The position numbers and the translations under genes were made by a program. Source: an uncultured Dehalococcoidales bacterium (GTDB taxonomy: Bacteria > Chloroflexota > Dehalococcoidia > GIF9 > UBA5629). From it: DNA of 64,000 nucleotides. Location of the stretch: positions 14,502 to 78,501 of the forward strand of contig CAZSED010000002.1 of NCBI GenBank assembly GCA_964605885.1, written 5' to 3'. Below, one piece after another: positions 4,456 to 49,831 of this stretch (positions within the stretch are counted from its first letter, which is position 1; every line of letters starts with the position of its first letter). The notes under the pieces are model-generated. The model had not been told where the DNA came from. It searched no databases and saw nothing but the letters and a program-made list of their open reading frames with translations.

Positions 4456-5484
4456 ATGAAAAGATTTATTCCGCTGCTGGTCTTATTGCTGGTCCTGTTG
4501 TCAGTGCCGATCTCCGACAGGGTCAACGGGTTCCCCAATATCTGTGGCTCTGCAATCACGCAGGCCGCCACGGACATAACCCCCACTACCGCCACGCTCA
4601 ACGGCCAGGTTCTAATTCCCGAGCTATCGTTGCATGACAGGCACGGCGACATCATCCCGGCGGATTATGAGCTTGCAGACGTGGCTCCTGAAACATGCAC
4701 GGTCTACTTCCAGTACGGCACGACTTCTGGCGTCTATCCCCTCTCTACCCCGCCGGTCGCCAATCCACACAGTTCGACTATAAGATCGGTATCCAGGGCT
4801 GTGGGGGACCTCACGCCCTGTACTACCTATTTTGCGCGCATTGTCATACATTGCTCCTTTTCCCTTATACAGCGCCAGAGCCCGCTGGAATCCCTGTTTG
4901 CACTGGCTTCGACGGATTCCTGGTCAGCCTTCCCGCGCGGCCTTGGTTTCGGCTTTAGCGGCATCCCGGCAAGGGGCAGTCATTATACAGTTGCTGAGTG
5001 CACCGCGCCTGGCAACGAGATATCATTTACCACCCTGGGCTGCCAGGTGGGCAATGTCCACTCATCTCTGGCCACCGGCGGCGTGGGCCAGGGCGGCGTG
5101 CCCACCAATTTATCCAACATAGTTACCTCCGCCGCCACGATTTCCAATACAAAAGTGTCGCCGGGTGAGCAGGTGGACGTCATCGCAACCCTTATCAATA
5201 AGGGCAATGCCAACGGCGCTCTCAAAATCAACCTTTATGTAAACGACGAGCTGGCCGATTCCAGGGGCGTTACTCTGTCCGCCGGCGAGAGCGCACCCGT
5301 TCATTTTTATGTCACGCGCAATGAGCCGGGCACCTATACGGTCAGGGTGGGCAACATTCCAGCCGGCAGCTTTACCGTGGATCTTTTCAGCAACAACGAT
5401 ATCCTGATCTACGGCGTCATCGCTGTCTTCACGCTGGGCATCGTAGGTGTCATCATCCTGCTGTCAAGGAGGCGTCGGGCCTGA
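4456..5484 (+). CDS. Secreted CARDB-like domain protein with a C-terminal TM anchor
   Basis: N-terminal signal peptide; a CARDB-like segment (GEQVDVIATLINKGNANGALKINLYVND...YTVRVGN); C-terminal hydrophobic helix followed by a basic tail RRRRA. Confidence 0.5.
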   Translation: MKRFIPLLVLLLVLLSVPISDRVNGFPNICGSAITQAATDITPTTATLNGQVLIPELSLHDRHGDIIPADYELADVAPETCTVYFQYGTTSGVYPLSTPPVANPHSSTIRSVSRAVGDLTPCTTYFARIVIHCSFSLIQRQSPLESLFALASTDSWSAFPRGLGFGFSGIPARGSHYTVAECTAPGNEISFTTLGCQVGNVHSSLATGGVGQGGVPTNLSNIVTSAATISNTKVSPGEQVDVIATLINKGNANGALKINLYVNDELADSRGVTLSAGESAPVHFYVTRNEPGTYTVRVGNIPAGSFTVDLFSNNDILIYGVIAVFTLGIVGVIILLSRRRRA

Positions 5485-15167: not shown

Positions 15168-15818
15168 TTAACCGGCAGCGTCGCCGCTGCCGCCGGCCTT
15201 GCTCTCAGCCTGCGTCTGCCGGGCTGTTTTAAGCTCCTTGATTGCATGCTCCAATATGATTACAAATATGGCGATTCCCATGCCGTTGGCCACCATCATT
15301 GCCGGTATCGCCGTATAGACAACCTGCAGCGCATCATCGAAAGGACGGGCGATCAAGAGCGCCAGAACGCCGTGAAGCACCTCGACGAAGATGGCTGCCA
15401 GTATGGCGTAACCGATGCTGATGAGCTTTTTCTTGTTTATGAGGTAGATCAGTCCGCCGACCACGCCTGCCAGTATGGTGGCCAGTCCGCATGGTATGGC
15501 GGTGAACCCGCCCATGAAGTAGCGTTGCACGCCGCCTATAAGGCCAGCTCCCAGTCCGACCAGCGGGCCGGCCACAAGGCCGGCCACCAGCGGGCCGAGG
15601 TCCCTGATGCTGCTTATGGCCCCGCCGGGCAGCTCTATGCCCGTGTATGTCCCGAAGATGGAAAATGCGCCGAAGAGCGCCGCCAATAAGAGCAGGTCGT
15701 GCCGGCTGGCCGTCCTCAGCAGCGCCCTGCGGACGGATTCAATGTGGACGATGAGTTCAGCAAAGACATATATAAATACTTCTGTGGTGGCAAAAAGGCC
15801 CAAAATATTATGTATCAC
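15168..15818 (-). CDS. Stand-alone LytS/YhcK-type 5TM receptor (5TMR-LYT) domain membrane protein
   Basis: Five hydrophobic helices with GxxxG-rich packing typical of the LytS sensor domain; no kinase domain follows. Confidence 0.45.
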   Translation of the reverse strand: MIHNILGLFATTEVFIYVFAELIVHIESVRRALLRTASRHDLLLLAALFGAFSIFGTYTGIELPGGAISSIRDLGPLVAGLVAGPLVGLGAGLIGGVQRYFMGGFTAIPCGLATILAGVVGGLIYLINKKKLISIGYAILAAIFVEVLHGVLALLIARPFDDALQVVYTAIPAMMVANGMGIAIFVIILEHAIKELKTARQTQAESKAGGSGDAAG

Positions 15819-15953
15819 TTTGTTTACTTCCTGTATAGTTTGATTCCGGAACGCCGGCCAGCTTCCATTTTACTGTCACTCTTGCCGCCCGTGCAAAAGT
15901 TGGCTGCACGTCATCACGACCCCGATAGAATCGGGGGTGATGTAATCGGAGCG

Positions 15954-16250
15954 GCAATCTCCTTTCCATACGCCATTGCGAGGAGCCCGGAGGGCGACGC
16001 GGCAATCTCCTTTCCATACGCCATTGCGAGGAGCCCGGAGGGCGACGTGGCAATCTCCTTTCTACACGCCATTGCGAGGAGCCCGGAGGGCGACGTGGCA
16101 ATCTCCTTTCCGCACGCCATTGCGAGGAGCCCGGAGGGCGACGTGGCAATCTCCTTTCCACACGCCATTGCGAGGAGCCCGGAGGGCGACGCGGCAATCT
16201 CCTTTCCACACGCCATTGCGAGGAGCCCGGAGGGCGACGTGGCAATCTCC
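15954..16250. repeat. Near-perfect 48-bp tandem repeat of 6 copies plus a partial seventh
   Basis: The unit GCAATCTCCTTTCCAYACGCCATTGCGAGGAGCCCGGAGGGCGACGYG starts at 15954, 16002, 16050, 16098, 16146, 16194 and 16242. The unit carries the GTGGCAATCTCC / CATTGCGAGG core of the dispersed repeat family. Confidence 0.9.
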
Positions 16251-16390
16251 TGATCGAAGGCTACTCTTGTGCCCCAACTCTTTTCGCCTTGGTGAAGCCC
16301 ATGTCCGAGCAGCCCTTTATCTGCGGTAGTGCCATCGCAAGGTAAACAGCCAACCGTTCCTTTCTTATATTGAAACTGTTCCAACCAGAG

Positions 16391-16588
16391 TCAGGCGACA
16401 TAGTAGCCGACAATTACGTAGGCAAAGGTGGCAATGAATCCAACGATACACCAGAGCCAGGCCCACCTGAAATACCTTCGATCTGACTTCCTGCCAAATA
16501 TGAGGCCGTAAACGACTCCTACGGCAAACCCATTGCTGACCAGTGCACCCAGTAATATCAGGATAACCATTCTGACCGTTTCGGACAT
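16391..16588 (-). CDS. Small two-TM membrane protein (65 aa) immediately downstream of the AbrB-like gene
   Basis: GGGGAGAG RBS 5 nt upstream of the ATG; two hydrophobic helices. Confidence 0.5.
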   Translation of the reverse strand: MSETVRMVILILLGALVSNGFAVGVVYGLIFGRKSDRRYFRWAWLWCIVGFIATFAYVIVGYYVA

Positions 16589-16639: not shown

Positions 16640-16885
16640 TCACCTGCGCCCCTTATCGTTAATCGTGGTCTTGATCTCACGGAATAAATCCATGGCGCCG
16701 GACATTGTTTTTTGTATGATGCTCAAGGTGGCTATGCCTATTCCCTGCTCCATGTCTCCAAAGACCAGCAGCTTATCGCCGGTCTTAATGCCGAAATCCC
16801 GCCTGGCATCCGCAGGAATGACAATCTGCCCCCGTTCGCTCACCGTAACCGATCCATAAAATCTCTTGCCTTCAGGTGCTTCCAT
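16640..16885 (-). CDS. AbrB/MazE/SpoVT-family swapped-hairpin DNA-binding protein
   Basis: VTVSERGQIVIPADARRDFGIKTGDKLLV matches the SpoVT_AbrB domain. Confidence 0.65.
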   Translation of the reverse strand: MEAPEGKRFYGSVTVSERGQIVIPADARRDFGIKTGDKLLVFGDMEQGIGIATLSIIQKTMSGAMDLFREIKTTINDKGRR

Positions 16886-17193
16886 ATTTTATACCTCTGT
16901 CATGATTTACATGATATATCTTATTTACAAGATTAATCATACCAATTGGGGCGCTGGCTGTCAAGTTGACTGCAAAATCCGGCATGCGCTGCTTGAAGGT
17001 ATTTGCCTGTTCTGCAGCCGTGCTGTTAAACTGACGTACCCTGAACTATCACGGAAGCGCGAAATGGATTTGGGCGGCACGATTCCCATTCTACGTGCAG
17101 AACTGCTGCGCCTTATCCGCATTGACACCCGGAATCCGGTATCGGCATCCGGCCGCCTGTTTTTATATATGGTTTAAGAAGGAGGGCAGAACA

Positions 17194-17712
17194 ATGGCAA
17201 AAGTAAGGCTCTGTTTGACTGTACTTGTCGTGGTTGCAGCGGCAATGATGCTGGGGGCGTGTTCCAAGGCTGCCACCACTCCCACTACTCCAACCACACC
17301 CGCTGCTCCCGCTACCACCACTACACCGACTACGCCCGACACGCGTTCTGCCCCGCCTATCGGCGGCGGCTGCAAGTATGTGGAGGTACCGGGCATCGCC
17401 AGAATTACATCGGTGGAGACGGCTCCCTCCGGGGAGTATAACTGCAAGGATGCCGTCAAGGTCACCTTCGATTTCATTCCCAACGATCCGGCCGCCGCCA
17501 GCAGCTTCCGCTTCCCCAAGTGGCCAGGCACATTCACGGTTGGCGCCGGCATGAACCCTCCCAGGGCCTGGGTGCTGGAGCGGGGCCTGACGGTGGGCAG
17601 CGAGCATGCCTGCATAAGGTCTGAAATTACTGCGGGGCCATGCACCCCGGTAGGGTTCCGCCTGACCGATATCAACATGGAAGGATGGGACAAATACTGC
17701 TGGGAGAAATGA
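17194..17712 (+). CDS. Lipoprotein with a Thr/Pro-rich linker
   Basis: AGGAGG RBS; lipobox LGAC; TTPTTPTTPAAPATTTTPTTP linker. Confidence 0.55.
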   Translation: MAKVRLCLTVLVVVAAAMMLGACSKAATTPTTPTTPAAPATTTTPTTPDTRSAPPIGGGCKYVEVPGIARITSVETAPSGEYNCKDAVKVTFDFIPNDPAAASSFRFPKWPGTFTVGAGMNPPRAWVLERGLTVGSEHACIRSEITAGPCTPVGFRLTDINMEGWDKYCWEK

Positions 17713-17728
17713 GCAAGGAGCGGAATAT

Positions 17729-18214
17729 ATGAGTAATCCGGCTGTAAAATCGACCGGCTGTTGCGAGCCGTTTGATCCTGTGCCCTGGCAGGACAGGGAG
17801 ATCACCTGGCAGGACAAAATTTTCATCAAAGACCATGTTACCAGCTTTTTACACATACCCCTGAACATGGGACAAAAGGTCGTTAAAAACATGGAGCTTA
17901 TTCAAAAGGCCAATGCCGGGGCGCCCTACCAGTTGATGCTGACCGACGAGAAATCCATGTGGGGGGCGGACATTTATATAGATGTTTCCAAGGAGGTCCC
18001 CGGCGCACAGATGGTCACGCTTTCCGGCAGTTACCTGACCAAAGTTTTTGAGGGGCCGTATAACCATGCCGGCAAATGGGCGGTGGAAATGGCCGAATAC
18101 GTCAAAAACAAGGGAAAGAGCCTGAAGAAGCTTTATTTCTCTTACACCACCTGCCCGAAGTGCGCTAAAGCCTACGGTAAAAATTACGTGGTGCTTTTTG
18201 CGCAGGTAAATTAA
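17729..18214 (+). CDS. Hypothetical protein
   Basis: 161 aa; no domain recognised by eye. Confidence 0.4.
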   Translation: MSNPAVKSTGCCEPFDPVPWQDREITWQDKIFIKDHVTSFLHIPLNMGQKVVKNMELIQKANAGAPYQLMLTDEKSMWGADIYIDVSKEVPGAQMVTLSGSYLTKVFEGPYNHAGKWAVEMAEYVKNKGKSLKKLYFSYTTCPKCAKAYGKNYVVLFAQVN

Positions 18215-18259
18215 AATTGTCTCCGGCATCAGCTACCCTTATACATACTAATAAAAGAA

Positions 18260-18832
18260 ATGAGCACGCCGGTAATAGCAGCCATCATAGCCATCAATAT
18301 ATGCCTGTTTTATTACATTGTCAGCGAGATCATGCTCACTGCCCGCACCAGGCGGGAAAAAACGGCCGACAGGGGTACGCAGCGGCTGGTCTGGATACTC
18401 CTGGCAATCTGCTTCATCCTGGCGTGGGTCCCAGTGATACTGGACCTCGGCCGCCTGCTCCTGCTGGGTCACTGGCTGACATGGGTTGGTGTGGCCGTGA
18501 TGGTCTGCGGCATCGTCTTCCGCCAGTATTCCATTTCAGTGCTGGGGAAGTACTTTACCGGCCAGGTGCAGATTCAGGTGGGGCATGAGCTGATACGCGC
18601 CGGCCCCTACCGTTACATCCGTCATCCGTCCTATCTTGGAATCCTCGTCATAGCCCTGGGACTGGGTATTGCTCTGTCCAACTGGATCTCCATCCTGTTA
18701 TGCCTGGTGCTGCCTTCCATCGGGATAGTGCGCAGGATAAAGGTGGAGGAGAAGGAGATGGAGAAGCACTTCGGCATGCAGTACCGGGACTATCGCAGGA
18801 GCACCCGGGCCATCATCCCCTATATATATTGA
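18260..18832 (+). CDS. Isoprenylcysteine carboxyl methyltransferase (ICMT/PEMT) family membrane methyltransferase
   Basis: RHPSYLG motif; multiple TM helices. Confidence 0.65.
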   Translation: MSTPVIAAIIAINICLFYYIVSEIMLTARTRREKTADRGTQRLVWILLAICFILAWVPVILDLGRLLLLGHWLTWVGVAVMVCGIVFRQYSISVLGKYFTGQVQIQVGHELIRAGPYRYIRHPSYLGILVIALGLGIALSNWISILLCLVLPSIGIVRRIKVEEKEMEKHFGMQYRDYRRSTRAIIPYIY

Positions 18833-18848
18833 GCAGAACTCGCCGTAA

Positions 18849-19380
18849 GGAGGCCAAATTGAAAGGCTGGAAGGAAGAAGAGATCAGAAACACGGACCTG
18901 ATGGCGCCCTGCGGGCTGTACTGCGGCGCCTGCGGGATTTACATTGCCACCAGGAACGGTAACGAGAAATTCCGCACGGTCATGGCCAACCTTTACCAAA
19001 CCAAACCGGAGGAGACGGAATGCTTCGGCTGCATGCAGCCTGATCCCCCCAAAAAGCTCTACGGCTACTGCCAGACATGCCAGATCAGGGACTGCGTCAA
19101 ATCGAAGGGGTTCTACTCCTGCCACCAGTGCCGGGAATGGCCCTGCGCCCTGATTCAGAATTTCTCCCTTGCCACCGGACTGCGGGTAATGAAACGGACC
19201 ATACCCGTATGGCGGGCAAAGGTGGCCGAACACGGCGATGAGGAAGGCAACGTGGAGTGGGTACGGTCGGAATTAGAGCGGTATCACTGCCCGTCGTGCG
19301 GAGAGCCGCTTTTTAGAGGCGCGCAGCGCTGCCGGGCCTGCAAAAGTTCGGTAGCGGATGAGCTGGACGGGTCCTTGTAA
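18849..19380 (+). CDS. DUF3795 Cys-rich protein
   Basis: APCGLYCGACGIY N-terminal signature. Start is likely TTG 18849 after an AGGAGG RBS; alternative ATG at 18901. Confidence 0.55.
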
Positions 19381-19416
19381 GCGAACGCAGCAGGAGGGCA
19401 CGTTATAGTTAAGCAG

Positions 19417-19968
19417 ATGAGAACTGAAGCCATTGCAAAGTCGACGCCTGGAAAGCTCTTTATGCGGCTGCTGGCTTCTGCCATGGAGAGCCGTTTCCGC
19501 TACAGGTTCTTCAGCCCGTTGAGCATCCTGGAAGGTGTCGACAACCTGGCCGGTCGCGCCGTCCTGGAGGTCGGATGCGGCACCGGGTACTTTACACTGC
19601 CGGCAGCTAATTTGATTGGTGACCGGGGGCTGCTGACCTCTATTGATGTCCTGGCCGAGTCAGTCGACCTGGTGAGTAGAAAAGTGCAGTCATCCGGCTT
19701 AGAGAACGTGCGCATTGTCAGGGCTGACGCCCTCAGCACTGGCCTGGACAATGCGGCCTTCGATACGGTCCTGTTATTTGGAGTGATACCGGCCCCCATG
19801 CTGCCGCTGAGCCGTCTGCTTCCCGAAATGCACCGCGTCCTCAAGCCGGGCGGCACCCTGGCGGTCTGGCCCCCCGTCCCGGGTTGGCTGCCGGGCTCGA
19901 TTGTCAGGTCCGGGCTGTTCACGTTCTCACTCAAGCGCAACAGTGTCTACAACTTCAAATGCCTGTGA
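19417..19968 (+). CDS. Class I SAM-dependent methyltransferase
   Basis: VLEVGCGTGYF motif I. Confidence 0.65.
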   Translation: MRTEAIAKSTPGKLFMRLLASAMESRFRYRFFSPLSILEGVDNLAGRAVLEVGCGTGYFTLPAANLIGDRGLLTSIDVLAESVDLVSRKVQSSGLENVRIVRADALSTGLDNAAFDTVLLFGVIPAPMLPLSRLLPEMHRVLKPGGTLAVWPPVPGWLPGSIVRSGLFTFSLKRNSVYNFKCL

Positions 19969-20048
19969 GCGCACATACACAATGCTATAATAGCGTCACA
20001 CTTCAGGGCGACTAATTCCGAAATACTACTAGAGGGGAGAATCTTGCC

Positions 20049-20759
20049 GTGAACACAAATATAAATTGCTCCAAATGTAAAAAAACTGTTTGCTACAGCA
20101 AGTATTATATGAACGGGCCGGAAAACTGCCCGACGAAGACCGAGGCAGAGGTAATCGAAAGGGCGGTTAACGAATATGAAAAGCCGGAGCAAAAGGAATT
20201 TGCACGCCAGGCATCGATTCAGGAATTTGAGAACTACATGAATATGCCGGAAGGACTGATGTCCCGTAATCCCAGGGTGGAGGAGGTGATTCAGTTCGCA
20301 AAAAAGATGGGCTACCGGAAACTGGGAGTCGCCTTCTGCGTCGGCCTCAAAAATGAGGCGGATATATTTGCCGAAATACTGGAAAATCGCGGCTTTGATG
20401 TGGTTTTCGTCTGCTGTAAGGTGGGTGGCATCCCCAAGGAAAGAATTGGAATTAAAGATGAGCAGAAGATTGCCCACACATTCAATATGCCTGACCTGTG
20501 GGAGACGATGTGCAACCCGATTGCGCAGGCCGAAATATTAAATAAATCGGAAGTGGATTTTAACGTGGCTGTGGGACTGTGTGTTGGGCATGATTCGCTG
20601 TTTTTTAAATATGCCAGGGCGCCGGTAACAGTGCTCATTGCCAAAGACAGGGTCCTCGGACATAACCCCGCTGCCGCTCTATACCAGTCAAACGCCTACT
20701 ACAGGCGGCTGATCCGCAAAGAGCCATTTGAGAACAGGCTGCCTTCAGCTTCTGATTAA
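20049..20759 (+). CDS. DUF1847-like Cys-rich metal-binding protein
   Basis: CSKCKKTVCY...CP N-terminal cysteines and GLCVGHD; GTG start with GGGGAGA RBS. Confidence 0.4.
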   Translation: MNTNINCSKCKKTVCYSKYYMNGPENCPTKTEAEVIERAVNEYEKPEQKEFARQASIQEFENYMNMPEGLMSRNPRVEEVIQFAKKMGYRKLGVAFCVGLKNEADIFAEILENRGFDVVFVCCKVGGIPKERIGIKDEQKIAHTFNMPDLWETMCNPIAQAEILNKSEVDFNVAVGLCVGHDSLFFKYARAPVTVLIAKDRVLGHNPAAALYQSNAYYRRLIRKEPFENRLPSASD

Positions 20760-28180: not shown

Positions 28181-28255
28181 TGGTGGCAGCGACTGGGATT
28201 GAACCAGTGACCAAGGGCTTATGAGTCCCCTGCTCTACCGCTGAGCTACGCTGCC
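28181..28255 (-). tRNA. tRNA-Met, anticodon CAT (a lysidine Ile2-type cannot be excluded), with CCA encoded
   Basis: The reverse complement folds into a canonical cloverleaf: GGCAGCG-TA-GCTC-AGCGGTA-GAGC-A-GGGGA-CTCATAA-GCCCT-TGGTC-ACTGG-TTCAATC-CCAGT-CGCTGCC-A-CCA. Confidence 0.85.
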
Positions 28256-28515: not shown

Positions 28516-28645
28516 TACAGCCTCCCCAATCGATGCTATAAGGGATTATAGCACTGCCACGCTACCGCCCTCACCCTGCCCTCTCCCTAAAGGGCGAGGG
28601 TATTTATTTTTATAAGAGGGGCTGGCGCCCCTCTTAAACGCCTGT

Positions 28646-28694
28646 CATTTTCCTTCGCTCTGGAGATTGCCACGCCCCGTTAAAATCGGGGCTC
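28646..28694 (-). repeat. Nested-hairpin dispersed repeat (GTCATTGCGAG-CCCCGATTTTAACGGGGC-GTGGCAATCTCC) flanked by two copies of the palindrome TAAGAGGrGCTGrCGCCCCTCTTAAAC
   Basis: Read directly from sequence. The palindromes lie at about 28606-28634 and 28716-28744. Confidence 0.7.
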
Positions 28695-28903
28695 GCAATG
28701 ACATGTAAATATAAGAGGAGCTGACGCCCCTCTTAAACACTCCCAAGCCGTTCTGATTTATCTTCTATGTCCAAATCGCACCACGCGAGAACGCCACGCT
28801 TGGATGAGGCTGCTTTGACATGCTATTATTACTGGAGTAAAATATCCGGCAGTTTAATACTTATGCTCATGTGCGCATAAGTAGATAAGGATAGGTCAAG
28901 ACC

Positions 28904-36221: not shown

Positions 36222-36228
36222 AATCTGT

Positions 36229-36365
36229 CATTGCGAGGCCCGATTTCATCGGGCCGTGGCAATCTCCCTGCCGCAAAACAAGAATAAAAGGGGCCGCCCG
36301 ATGGGCGGCCCTTGTTTGTTTTAAATGTCATTGCGAGCCCCCGATGCAATCGGCGCTCATCGCAT
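36229..36365 (+). repeat. Two further copies of the nested-hairpin dispersed repeat (GTCATTGCGAGG-CCCGATTTCATCGGGCC-GTGGCAATCTCC at about 36229, and a 3'-truncated copy at about 36326)
   Basis: Read directly; the cores are shared with 28646..28694 and with the 48-bp tandem unit. Confidence 0.7.
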
Positions 36366-36479
36366 TTTCCCAACTTGACCGACAGGTTCAAGCGGGTGTA
36401 CCTTCCTGGCTCTTTCTTTTTATGTCACCTTAAAGTAGAATTCAGGAAAGTTACAGCTTCATACAGGTGAATCAGCAAG

Positions 36480-48763: not shown

Positions 48764-48805
48764 CCTGCCGGAGCCAAAGCTGCATTTCCGATGAAAAGGA
48801 GGCCT

Positions 48806-49831
48806 ATGATGTCCTTTAAGAAATTTACCGTGCTCAGCGCCGTAGTGATAATCGCCCTGAGCAGCCTGGCAGACGGCTGCTCTGCTCAGCAGGCACAGCC
48901 GCCCGCCGGGCCGGACGGCTCGCAGCCATCCAATAAGCCCCCGCTGACGCTGCCTGTAACCCCTACAGAGAACAAAAGCGCTATCACACCGCCGCAATCA
49001 TCGGCACTGCCCAACTTCAGCGGCAAGCTGGTGTTCAACTCGGGCACGGGAGACCAGGGCGGGCCGCAGATATATACATCAACCGCCAACGGCACCAACT
49101 GGACCAAGCTGACCAAGGGCAATGTAGGCGGTGACCGCTTCCCCAAATGGTCGCCTGACGGCAGCAAAATTGTCTTCTTCTCAGACCGTGACGGCACGCA
49201 GCAGATATATGTCATGAACGCCGACGGCAGCAACCAGGTAAGGCTGACCAACAATACTGCCAACGACCTGCTGCCATCCTGGTCTCCGGACGGCAAAAAG
49301 ATTGCCTTTACCTCGAGCCGTGACAATAACGAGCAGATATACGTGATGAACGCTGACGGCAGCAACCAGGCAAGGCTGACCAAAAACTCCGACAACGATG
49401 CGGCACCCGTCTGGTCACCTGACGGCAAGAAGATCGCCTTCCAGAGCGACCGTGACCAGAACACCGAGATCTACGTGATGAACGCCGACGGCAGCAACCA
49501 GGTCAACATCACCTCCGACGCCGCGGTGGATGATTTCCCGGCGTGGTCGCCGGACGGCAAGAAGATCCTCTTCCAGTCCAATGACAGCGGCACCTTCCAG
49601 ATCTGCGTTATCAATCCCGACGGCACAGGCCGGCAGCGGCTGACCTTCGGCCAGAACGAAAATAAATACCCGGACTGGTCTCCGGACGGCAGCAAGATAG
49701 TCTTCTATTCCAAGCGCGACTGCGATAACGATAACGGCGAGATATATATTATGAACGCCGACGGCAGCGGGCAGACCCGCATTACCCACAGCGACTGCAC
49801 GGACGCGGGCCTGGCCTCCTGGCACAATTAA
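48806..49831 (+). CDS. Periplasmic WD40-like beta-propeller (PD40/TolB-like) repeat protein
   Basis: Six to seven repeats of the type WSPDGKKIAFxSxRDGNxEIYVMNADGSNQxRLT; signal peptide. Confidence 0.75.
   Translation: MMSFKKFTVLSAVVIIALSSLADGCSAQQAQPPAGPDGSQPSNKPPLTLPVTPTENKSAITPPQSSALPNFSGKLVFNSGTGDQGGPQIYTSTANGTNWTKLTKGNVGGDRFPKWSPDGSKIVFFSDRDGTQQIYVMNADGSNQVRLTNNTANDLLPSWSPDGKKIAFTSSRDNNEQIYVMNADGSNQARLTKNSDNDAAPVWSPDGKKIAFQSDRDQNTEIYVMNADGSNQVNITSDAAVDDFPAWSPDGKKILFQSNDSGTFQICVINPDGTGRQRLTFGQNENKYPDWSPDGSKIVFYSKRDCDNDNGEIYIMNADGSGQTRITHSDCTDAGLASWHN

Follow-up and report, generated by a model that had tools for sequence, protein, structure and literature searches.

Short hairpin repeats and their nucleases

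The closest described relatives of the DNA considered here are the Ssn-related motifs (SRMs), hairpins formed by inverted repeats of 20-50 nt that flank the genes of small GIY-YIG nucleases of the Ssn type, and the REP elements associated with RAYT transposases. The locus in question is a tandem array of 48-bp units at positions 15953-16251 of a 64,000-nucleotide stretch (the window, meaning the whole of the DNA analysed) from an uncultured Dehalococcoidales bacterium (contig CAZSED010000002.1). The array is probably the result of local tandem amplification of one SRM together with an 11-nt linker, the SRM belonging to the hairpin family of an Ssn nuclease. It is non-coding, and it is neither a CRISPR-like array nor a guide array.

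SsnA is a 94-aa GIY-YIG protein (cd10448) that binds the 28-nt NTS hairpin CGTCATTCCCGCGMAVGCGGGAATCYRG as single-stranded DNA (ssDNA) only; double-stranded DNA, RNA and the reverse strand are not bound, and the cut site lies a few nucleotides upstream of the hairpin (Chenal et al. 2025, PMC11893778). The C just after the palindrome matters most for binding, and the three nucleotides immediately upstream matter most for cleavage (PMC11893778). In Neisseria meningitidis, the ssnA/NTS pair lowers transformation by NTS-containing DNA; thousands of Ssn homologues exist, most of them flanked by SRMs, and 81% of genomes with >200 SRMs encode Ssn (PMC11893778). The same authors note the insertion-sequence (IS)-like architecture NTS-ssnA-NTS and an analogy with REP/RAYT, state that the roles of Ssn in other bacteria are unknown, and give the origin of the repeat expansions as hypothesis only (PMC11893778). 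Tandem arrays are not mentioned in that paper, taken without its supplements, and a literature search found no follow-up work.

The family to which the array belongs resembles the SRMs in several ways: it consists of short, oriented hairpin repeats whose palindrome is immediately preceded by a GTC head and immediately followed by a C; copies number in the hundreds, dispersed and mostly between genes; a gene for a single-domain GIY-YIG protein of ~95 aa (cd10448) is flanked by repeats, often as inverted copies; and arms and enzyme co-vary. The strand asymmetry and the GNA loops described below fit the published one-strand, ssDNA-only recognition. The differences are that the arms ATTGCGAG...GCAATCTC and the long, variable terminal hairpin lie outside the published pattern; that the type found here is near-identical across distant phyla, with nucleases 72-84% identical; and that it is common in viral contigs and frequently forms head-to-tail arrays. 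The hairpin/Ssn pairing is thus already published in outline (a one-strand ssDNA hairpin, its head, a bracketed nuclease gene, co-variation of the two); what is added is that one SRM variant is very widespread, that it is present in phages and that it tends to form arrays.

REP elements occur as tandem near-identical units that include flanking DNA, and also as clusters that arise by insertion beside existing copies (Bertels and Rainey 2011, PMC3116915); the arrays of the present family fall into the same two types. REP/REPIN-RAYT systems and BIMEs share further features with it, namely extragenic palindromic hairpins, a short conserved head and a single-copy nuclease gene flanked by repeats. 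However, the nuclease here is GIY-YIG rather than an HUH Y1 transposase, the head is GTC rather than GTAG, the hairpins are single and in direct orientation whereas REPINs are inverted doublets, and the family spans phyla whereas REP families are lineage-specific. Membership of the REP/REPIN-RAYT class was rejected on the head, on the direct orientation of the units, and on the failure of any Y1 gene to recur in ~360 loci.

In Neisseria, a homologue of the nuclease is flanked by GTCATTCCCGCGCAGGCGGGAATCT, a sequence defined as NTS that contains dRS3 (PMC11893778). The dRS3/NIME repeats have the same head, tail and hairpin plan, but their palindrome is ATTCCC/GGGAAT and their loop is short and fixed; in Neisseria they are known to serve as a phage integration target and to modulate transformation. 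Lastly, direct repeats in tandem, a few tens of nucleotides long and lying upstream of a gene, recall toxI and CRISPR loci. The locus differs from these in having no adjoining endoribonuclease toxin or cas gene, no spacers, and a unit drawn from a dispersed repeat family. A CRISPR array, which the initial annotation of the window had already discounted, is rejected on the linkers, which differ only by transitions at three positions; a type III toxI-like array is rejected because the downstream gene encodes a 5TM-5TMR_LYT protein, not ToxN/AbiQ.

The array and its units

Tandem Repeats Finder reports a single strong array (15953-16251: period 48, 6.2 copies, 96% matches, 0 indels, score 556). 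The initial annotation had described six head-to-tail units of 48 bp; the array is real, the starts quoted for the units fit the register found, and the unit sequence reads as given. Several of its details need correction, however, concerning the perfection of the array, the orientation of the neighbouring genes, the reading frames and open reading frames (ORFs), and a hairpin held to be missing. In register, the unit is GGCAATCTCC-TTTC[C/T][A/G][T/C]ACGC-CATTGCGAGGAGCCCGGAGGGCGACG[T/C], the middle segment being the 11-nt linker, near-identical between units. At 96% matches the array is not perfect, and four positions vary rather than two (15-17 in the linker and 48 in the 3' arm), in every case by transition. 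The string ATTGCGAGGAGC is matched six times where 0.44 matches are expected, which excludes a chance origin of the repeats. The parts of the array and its left border are as follows.

15953-16251, plus strand: tandem array, 6.2 units of 48 bp, each a 37-nt hairpin element and an 11-nt linker
15910-15947, plus strand: degenerate family member adjoining the array on its left, GTCATCACGA-CCCCGATAGAATCGGGG-GTGATGTAATC
15950-15961, plus strand: orphan 3' arm AGCGGCAATCTC that opens the array (arm match)
15972-16009, plus strand: element 1, GCC-ATTGCGAGGAG-CCC GGA GGG-CGACGC-GGCAAT-CTC (arm matches; aligned with 65 family members)
16020-16057, plus strand: element 2, T at the Y position (arm matches, unit table)
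16068-16105, plus strand: element 3, preceded by the CTACAC linker variant, source of the array's only stop codon
16116-16153, plus strand: element 4 (arm matches, unit table)
16164-16201, plus strand: element 5, C at the Y position (arm matches, unit table)
16212-16249, plus strand: element 6, with the unique flank TGATCG after it

Each unit is a complete family member with a short CCC-GGA-GGG hairpin, of the second subtype described below; it is therefore not an element with its centre removed, and the proposal that the central hairpin had been swapped out does not stand. GGCAAT-C, with the C that follows the palindrome, is shared by all array units and the two intact dispersed copies. The orphan 3' arm and the 3' arm of the first full element make a direct repeat of 10-12 bp. 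The degenerate member at the left edge folds strongly on both strands (minus, -22.6 kcal/mol, z -3.2; plus, -22.0 kcal/mol, z -2.2). A plasmid search gave no match to the array region.

A hairpin family across phyla

The family is very large and extends across bacterial phyla and viral contigs. It was sampled with an arm scan (two arms, free centre) of one genome per species, plus metagenomes and viral contigs; among the matches listed are Planctomycetota, Chloroflexota, Bacillota, Bacteroidota, the candidate phyla radiation (CPR), Alpha-, Gamma- and Deltaproteobacteria, Nitrospirota, Elusimicrobia and cultured isolates. From Chloroflexota to Bacteroidota to CPR, the hairpin type is near-identical. 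Its consensus is Y-GTC-ATTGCGAG-(GAG)-[hairpin]-(YGA)CGY-GGCAAT-CTC, in which the central stem sequence varies freely. The 3-nt head GTC is followed by a 5-bp basal stem, ATTGC/GCAAT, and by a conserved internal loop (a G-Y pair, an A.G mismatch, a G-C pair and a bulged G); then comes the freely varying terminal hairpin, which in the GAGGAG...CGACGY subtype is reached via tandem G.A pairs. The array unit belongs to that subtype, whose tandem G.A/A.G make up the non-pairing cells at pairs 13-27 and 14-26. GT precedes CATTGCGAG in 138 of 143 instances, though it is absent from the search pattern; the C directly after the palindrome formed part of the cross-phylum pattern, and its presence is uninformative for that set.

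The fold was assessed on 66 elements, the array unit included, for which length was the only selection criterion. Paired cells amount to 90.7%, against 75.2% in shuffles, a level reached by 0 of 500 shuffles; double-sided changes number 133 against 42.7 expected; and slid registers all give 54% or less. At pair 10-30, G.U (40 elements) alternates with G-C (25), and the arm polymorphism of the array falls at this position. The terminal loops are one-stranded in character: GNA accounts for 77 of 140 triloops and TNC for 4, and GNRA makes up only 14 of 88 tetraloops. As DNA, GNA triloops closed by G-C pairs form mini-hairpins of unusual stability. The one-stranded GNA loops point to a role of the GTCATTGCGAG strand as ssDNA. 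Readings of the internal loop as a K-turn, ribozyme or attC site were dropped, as on inspection their defining motifs are absent. In Rfam 15, only tRNA reaches the gathering score in the window, and at E <=10 nothing meaningful appears around the array, a dispersed copy or 18 related loci. A literature search with sequence strings of the element, on both strands, returned only unrelated primers.

Besides the array, the window holds three dispersed members.

28663-28702, minus strand: intact member with GTC head, bracketed by a second, unrelated hairpin repeat
36227-36266, plus strand: intact member with GTC head, 5 nt past the stop codon of a Ni-Fe hydrogenase large-subunit gene (Pfam)
36327-36369, plus strand: partly degenerate member, with the 5' arm intact, a CCGAT-GCA-ATCGG hairpin and a decayed 3' arm

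The initial annotation had traced the arms of the unit to all three. Both arms, CATTGCGAG ... CGYGGCAATCTC, do recur in the first two; the copy at 36327 shares the 5' arm alone. The heads at 28702 and 36227 are GTCATT, and the intact copies fold at z ~-3; the copy at 36227-36266 (z -3.2 as RNA, -3.9 as DNA) precedes an intrinsic-terminator-like hairpin. The second hairpin repeat, ATAAGAGGGGCTGGCGCCCCTCTTAAAC, stands in direct orientation on either side of the 28663-28702 element (28612-28639 and 28711-28738), and a GC-rich palindrome-like stretch, CCCTCACCCTGCCCTCTCCCTAAAGGGCGAGGGT, lies just upstream of these repeats at 28567-28603. The intergenic DNA beside tRNA-Met is in this way a pile-up of different small repeats.

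In viral contigs, the elements are found, facing either way, at many sites between the genes of one conserved portal-scaffold-capsid module, which is shared by ~47 of 120 element-bearing IMG/VR stretches (e.g. L253, L299, L333, L344). Scattered positions and both orientations argue for repeated insertion rather than a conserved regulatory site. One element of ~37 nt is present in one and absent from the other of two closely related cyanobacterial genomes (L380 and L381), with no target duplication evident; other empty-site matches in the insertion-footprint search were mostly artefacts of neighbouring repeats.

Arrays are frequent. In 120 metagenome stretches, head-to-tail groups of two (73), three (14), four (7) and five (2) units were counted, the period ranging over 35-68 bp. 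Two kinds can be told apart: identical units of element and linker that have been amplified, like those in the window, and different elements side by side. The six units of the window make the largest array when set beside this metagenome sample. A smaller example, a 60-bp tandem array at 5292-5450, lies downstream of an identical Ssn protein in L380 and L381; both of its units are changed alike (GTCCGAAGCGAGG in one genome, GTCATTGCGAGG in the other), a concerted change that suggests gene conversion or recent re-amplification.

A partner nuclease

ORFs tightly flanked by elements on both sides included a protein of ~95 aa with the motif YxYILTNK...LYxGVT, a single-domain GIY-YIG protein (Pfam PF01541). 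A profile search found it in nine element-selected loci, with an element at <=75 bp in 10 of 11 cases. In the reverse test, all nine of nine homologues picked blind to elements have family elements within ~1-140 bp. The genomic link between the hairpin family and Ssn homologues therefore runs both ways. Element density in the first six loci is 4.5/kb within 350 bp of the nuclease versus 0.15/kb elsewhere in them, a 30-fold difference. At several loci the gene is bracketed: upstream, a sense copy finishes 12-50 nt short of the start codon, and downstream an inverted copy starts at the stop codon or inside it.

Among the matches listed, the 72-84% identity of the nucleases holds across Aminicenantes, Dehalococcoidia, Cyanobacteria, Verrucomicrobiota and Ignavibacteria. 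The residues that match the GIY-YIG catalytic set (Tyr, Tyr-x-Gly, Arg, His, Glu, Asn) are invariant in the homologues. The protein is 48% identical to its Neisseria gonorrhoeae orthologue (E 6e-33 pairwise, 2e-22 by tblastn), and by the published standard of homology (PMC11893778) it counts as an Ssn protein. Homologues further removed, carried by plasmids and chromosomes of cultured bacteria, are accompanied by different but analogous hairpins in which the GTC head and an ATC tail are kept:

Planktothrix homologue, flank: GTCATTCTGAG...GAAGAATCTC
Spirosoma homologue, flank: GTCATCCCGAGGAACGAGGGATCT
Rhizobium homologue, flank: GTCATCCCAGGGCTTGACCCTGGGATC
Neisseria homologue, flank: GTCATTCCCGCGCAGGCGGGAATCT (dRS3/NTS)

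Nuclease and hairpin arms co-vary over Planktothrix, Spirosoma, Rhizobium, Neisseria and Novosphingobium, as one would predict for an enzyme with specificity for its own repeats.

The nuclease has no match in the PADLOC defence families and only faint similarity, in PHROG, to homing endonucleases. A word search of the literature for GIY-YIG with REP, MITE, palindromic repeats, COG2827, UPF0213 or YhbQ found nothing relevant. On Planktothrix agardhii plasmid p1 (L386), an ssn homologue and a hairpin cluster lie at 17350-20613 inside a defence island, between a restriction-modification gene of type IIL (MmeI) and drmA, which encodes the DISARM helicase.

Probable amplification of an Ssn-related motif

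The array is most plausibly accounted for, then, as one SRM and its linker amplified in place. By analogy with SsnA, the hairpin, as ssDNA on one strand, would be the Ssn binding site, and the cut would fall a few nucleotides upstream. The array itself would be mainly a by-product of the dynamics of the repeat family rather than a device for the flanking membrane-protein genes; nothing points to its serving them.

Several observations weigh against this account. The published SRM pattern, HGTCWYN(0-2)YYVSBRHN(0-5)WNVSBRGN(0-2)RNCYNB, matches 0 of 505 distinct elements and none in the window, although, as the same regular expression, it finds both the NTS of Neisseria and the Rhizobium flank. 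The published biochemistry comes from the Neisseria enzyme, and the present specificity class is known from sequence. A profile search of all ORFs found no ssn gene in the 64-kb window, and a cognate enzyme in the source organism is assumed. In all six units the head is GCCATT, that is, GCC and not GTC. The hairpin of the array unit has no predicted stability in nearest-neighbour models (z -0.3 as RNA, +0.3 as DNA), models that score tandem G.A pairs and GNA triloops poorly. The manner of growth, too, is conjectural: it was probably slippage or unequal exchange, seeded by the duplicated 3' arm GCGGCAATCTCC.

As to the first of these points, because the pattern matches 0 of 505, the ATTGCGAG-type hairpins are an SRM class out of reach of the counts in the published survey. 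As to the head, GC heads are rare in solo copies (5 of 456), and results of Neisseria mutagenesis suggest, by analogy, that the six GCC-head units are probably bound but poorly cut. A general enrichment of head-mutated elements in arrays was considered and rejected (1 of 24 arrays versus 31 of 456 solo copies).

For the array, the meaning is modest: a non-coding amplification of a known kind of repeat. For the family it is wider. Among the short repeats of bacterial and phage sequence, this hairpin type, which the published pattern misses, is one of the most widely shared, and published counts of 'Ssn genes without SRMs' are probably overestimates. Cultured carriers (Phormidium, Rivularia, Kamptonema and Leeuwenhoekiella) offer a concrete substrate-enzyme pair, with GTCATTGCGAG...GGCAATCTC as the strand predicted to be bound. 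Spurious ORF calls and broken contigs in metagenome assemblies are also explained in part, repeats of this family being a common source of both.

Copy number in other assemblies

Exact-protein look-up of two flanking genes retrieved the locus in six further assemblies. Two JGI contigs carry an identical 6.2-copy array, with the variants in the same order as in the window. Two ENA MEGAHIT k141 contigs carry 1.2 copies, consisting of the orphan 3' arm and exactly one unit, and are exactly 240 bp (5 units) shorter; they differ from the window by ~6 SNPs (single-nucleotide polymorphisms) in 20 kb. Logan contigs from two runs (k=31) are 100% identical to the window and end inside the array.

It is possible, though on the evidence somewhat unlikely, that the variation in copy number is unreal, the six-copy or the one-copy form being an assembly artefact. 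Copy number does follow pipeline, with JGI at 6.2 and ENA MEGAHIT at 1.2, five units apart, and the k=31 contigs do break within the array. Against this, the four linker variants stand in the same fixed order in two JGI assemblies and in the window; an assembler cannot invent such an order, and the multi-copy form is therefore real. The breaks in the Logan contigs, moreover, imply branching k-mers and hence several unit variants in those reads. Doubt is thus limited to the 1.2-copy form, which may be a true allele of a near-identical strain, as the ~6 SNPs would allow, or an assembler collapse. The variability that the initial annotation had expected of such arrays, which it held to be usually recent, may accordingly be real here.

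Repeats of this kind affect assemblies and annotation in other ways: they break short-k assemblies, as in the Logan contigs, and adjoin a run of N in L384. They also give rise to spurious genes: the JGI annotation places a 147-aa gene across the array (15810-16253, plus strand) and shortens the 5TMR_LYT gene from 216 to 211 aa.

Possible mobility of the hairpins

A bolder proposal, advanced here tentatively and on balance doubtful, is that the GTC-ATTGCGAG...GCAAT-C hairpin and the ~95-aa Ssn form a distinct, active and horizontally spreading mobile element, whose arrays arise via its own cuts. A hairpin-ssn-inverted hairpin unit of ~400 bp would then be perhaps the smallest IS-like unit known, and solo copies of the hairpin would integrate, across phyla, into the DNA of bacteria and phages. 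Cuts would fall upstream of each ssDNA hairpin, so that a cut-to-cut segment would be one linker and hairpin unit. The array of the window, without the cleavage-critical T, might be a fossilised or cleavage-resistant product, maybe still binding at six adjacent sites.

Alternatively, the hairpins might be spread by another enzyme (for example a HUH transposase of the RAYT/IS200 type) or be immobile, with ssn homing to hairpins already in place. This is unlikely, if less easily set aside than the readings that follow. An ssn gene is indeed rare in element-selected loci (9 of ~240 non-viral, 0 of 120 viral); none was found in viral stretches carrying the element or in cultured phage records; the viral copies are non-autonomous; and the origin of the repeat expansions is left hypothetical in the published work (PMC11893778). 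But no other protein family recurs beside the elements. Clustering of ORFs over the ~360 loci gave no Y1 transposase cluster and no general partner: phage structural families and common housekeeping families recur, and otherwise nothing rises above a few loci. The co-variation of nuclease and arms across the five genera named above, and the presence of Ssn in 81% of genomes with >200 SRMs (PMC11893778), also speak for Ssn itself.

Transcription, guides and translation

The readings that assign the array a role in RNA or protein depend on its neighbours, which are these.

15168-15818, minus strand: stand-alone 5TM-5TMR_LYT membrane protein gene, downstream neighbour of the array on that strand (Pfam PF07694, E 1.8e-44)
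16391-16588, minus strand: gene for a small membrane protein of 65 aa, upstream neighbour of the array on that strand
16640-16885, minus strand: AbrB/MazE-like SpoVT-type gene (Pfam PF04014), first of a co-directional gene string
16936-16964, minus strand: sigma-70-like promoter match, 11/12, upstream of the gene string (consensus match only)

The two genes that flank the array had been called convergent; both lie on the minus strand, and they are co-directional. No terminator-like site is predicted between them, and the membrane-protein genes may be transcribed from the promoter-like site at 16936-16964.

One could suppose on this basis that the array acts as RNA: that hairpins in the transcript lend stability to the message upstream of them, uncouple expression of the two membrane-protein genes or give rise to small RNAs, in the manner of E. 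coli REP/BIME. The promoter-like site and the lack of a predicted terminator before the array would allow it, as would the dispersed copy directly after a stop codon and a weak sense-orientation bias of family members downstream of genes (32 versus 17). Such a role is nevertheless distinctly unlikely. The elements lie on the strand opposite to the flanking genes; a transcript would therefore be the reverse complement, which folds weakly (-11.3 kcal/mol, z +0.56). The loops are strongly one-stranded GNA and not of the RNA types GNRA or UNCG, no Rfam match appears even at a permissive threshold, elements stand in both orientations relative to genes, and SsnA does not bind RNA (PMC11893778).

It is very improbable that the array is a contingency (phase-variation) locus, as the initial annotation had suggested, or that it supplies guide or antitoxin RNAs in the manner of CRISPR, TIGR or toxI arrays. 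Tandem near-identical units, and a possible difference in copy number between near-identical strains, are what such loci might present. The 48-bp units, however, lie between genes, in neither a coding region nor a recognisable promoter, and so not in a reading frame or between promoter hexamers; the near-identical 11-nt linkers leave no room for spacers; in arrays of mixed elements the variable part is a self-complementary stem, not a spacer; and the gene downstream, for a 5TMR_LYT membrane protein, is neither a ToxN/AbiQ endoribonuclease gene nor a cas/tas gene.

Translation of one frame as a protein of 16-residue repeats is barely credible: the period is divisible by three, five of six frames are open and JGI annotates its 147-aa gene there, but no frame has a Pfam match, only one of four distinct substitutions is silent in the longest minus-strand ORF as read from the DNA, the same sequence is a covarying hairpin in intergenic DNA of hundreds of unrelated genomes, and the called ORF overlaps and truncates the real 5TMR gene. 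The initial annotation had likewise taken the array for a repeat and not a gene, and this holds, the array ORFs having no Pfam match and the variation between units no coding signature. Its statement that every frame is open does not, since one minus-strand frame has a TAG in unit 3; and the ORFs of >=40 aa that overlap the array are five, not four. The openness of the frames is in any case unremarkable, because ~5% of shuffled units of the same composition are open in all six.

Other features of the window

Between 24000 and 28000, G+C is 0.475, versus ~0.57 elsewhere; this low-G+C stretch, which adjoins tRNA-Met (28181-28255), the window's only tRNA gene, may be an integrated island. A second tandem repeat, at 49199-49503 (132 bp, 2.3 copies, 80% matches), lies within a 346-aa ORF (48791-49831) and is probably a repeated protein domain, not a DNA-level element. 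A gene with an archaeal-type flagellin domain (PF01917) is found at ~26.3-26.6 kb, ~10 kb from the array; an archaeal source was considered on this account and rejected, the signalling proteins and an intrinsic-terminator-like hairpin indicating a bacterium, and the window is otherwise clearly bacterial, with GGDEF and HD-GYP signalling proteins and Ni-Fe hydrogenase operons.

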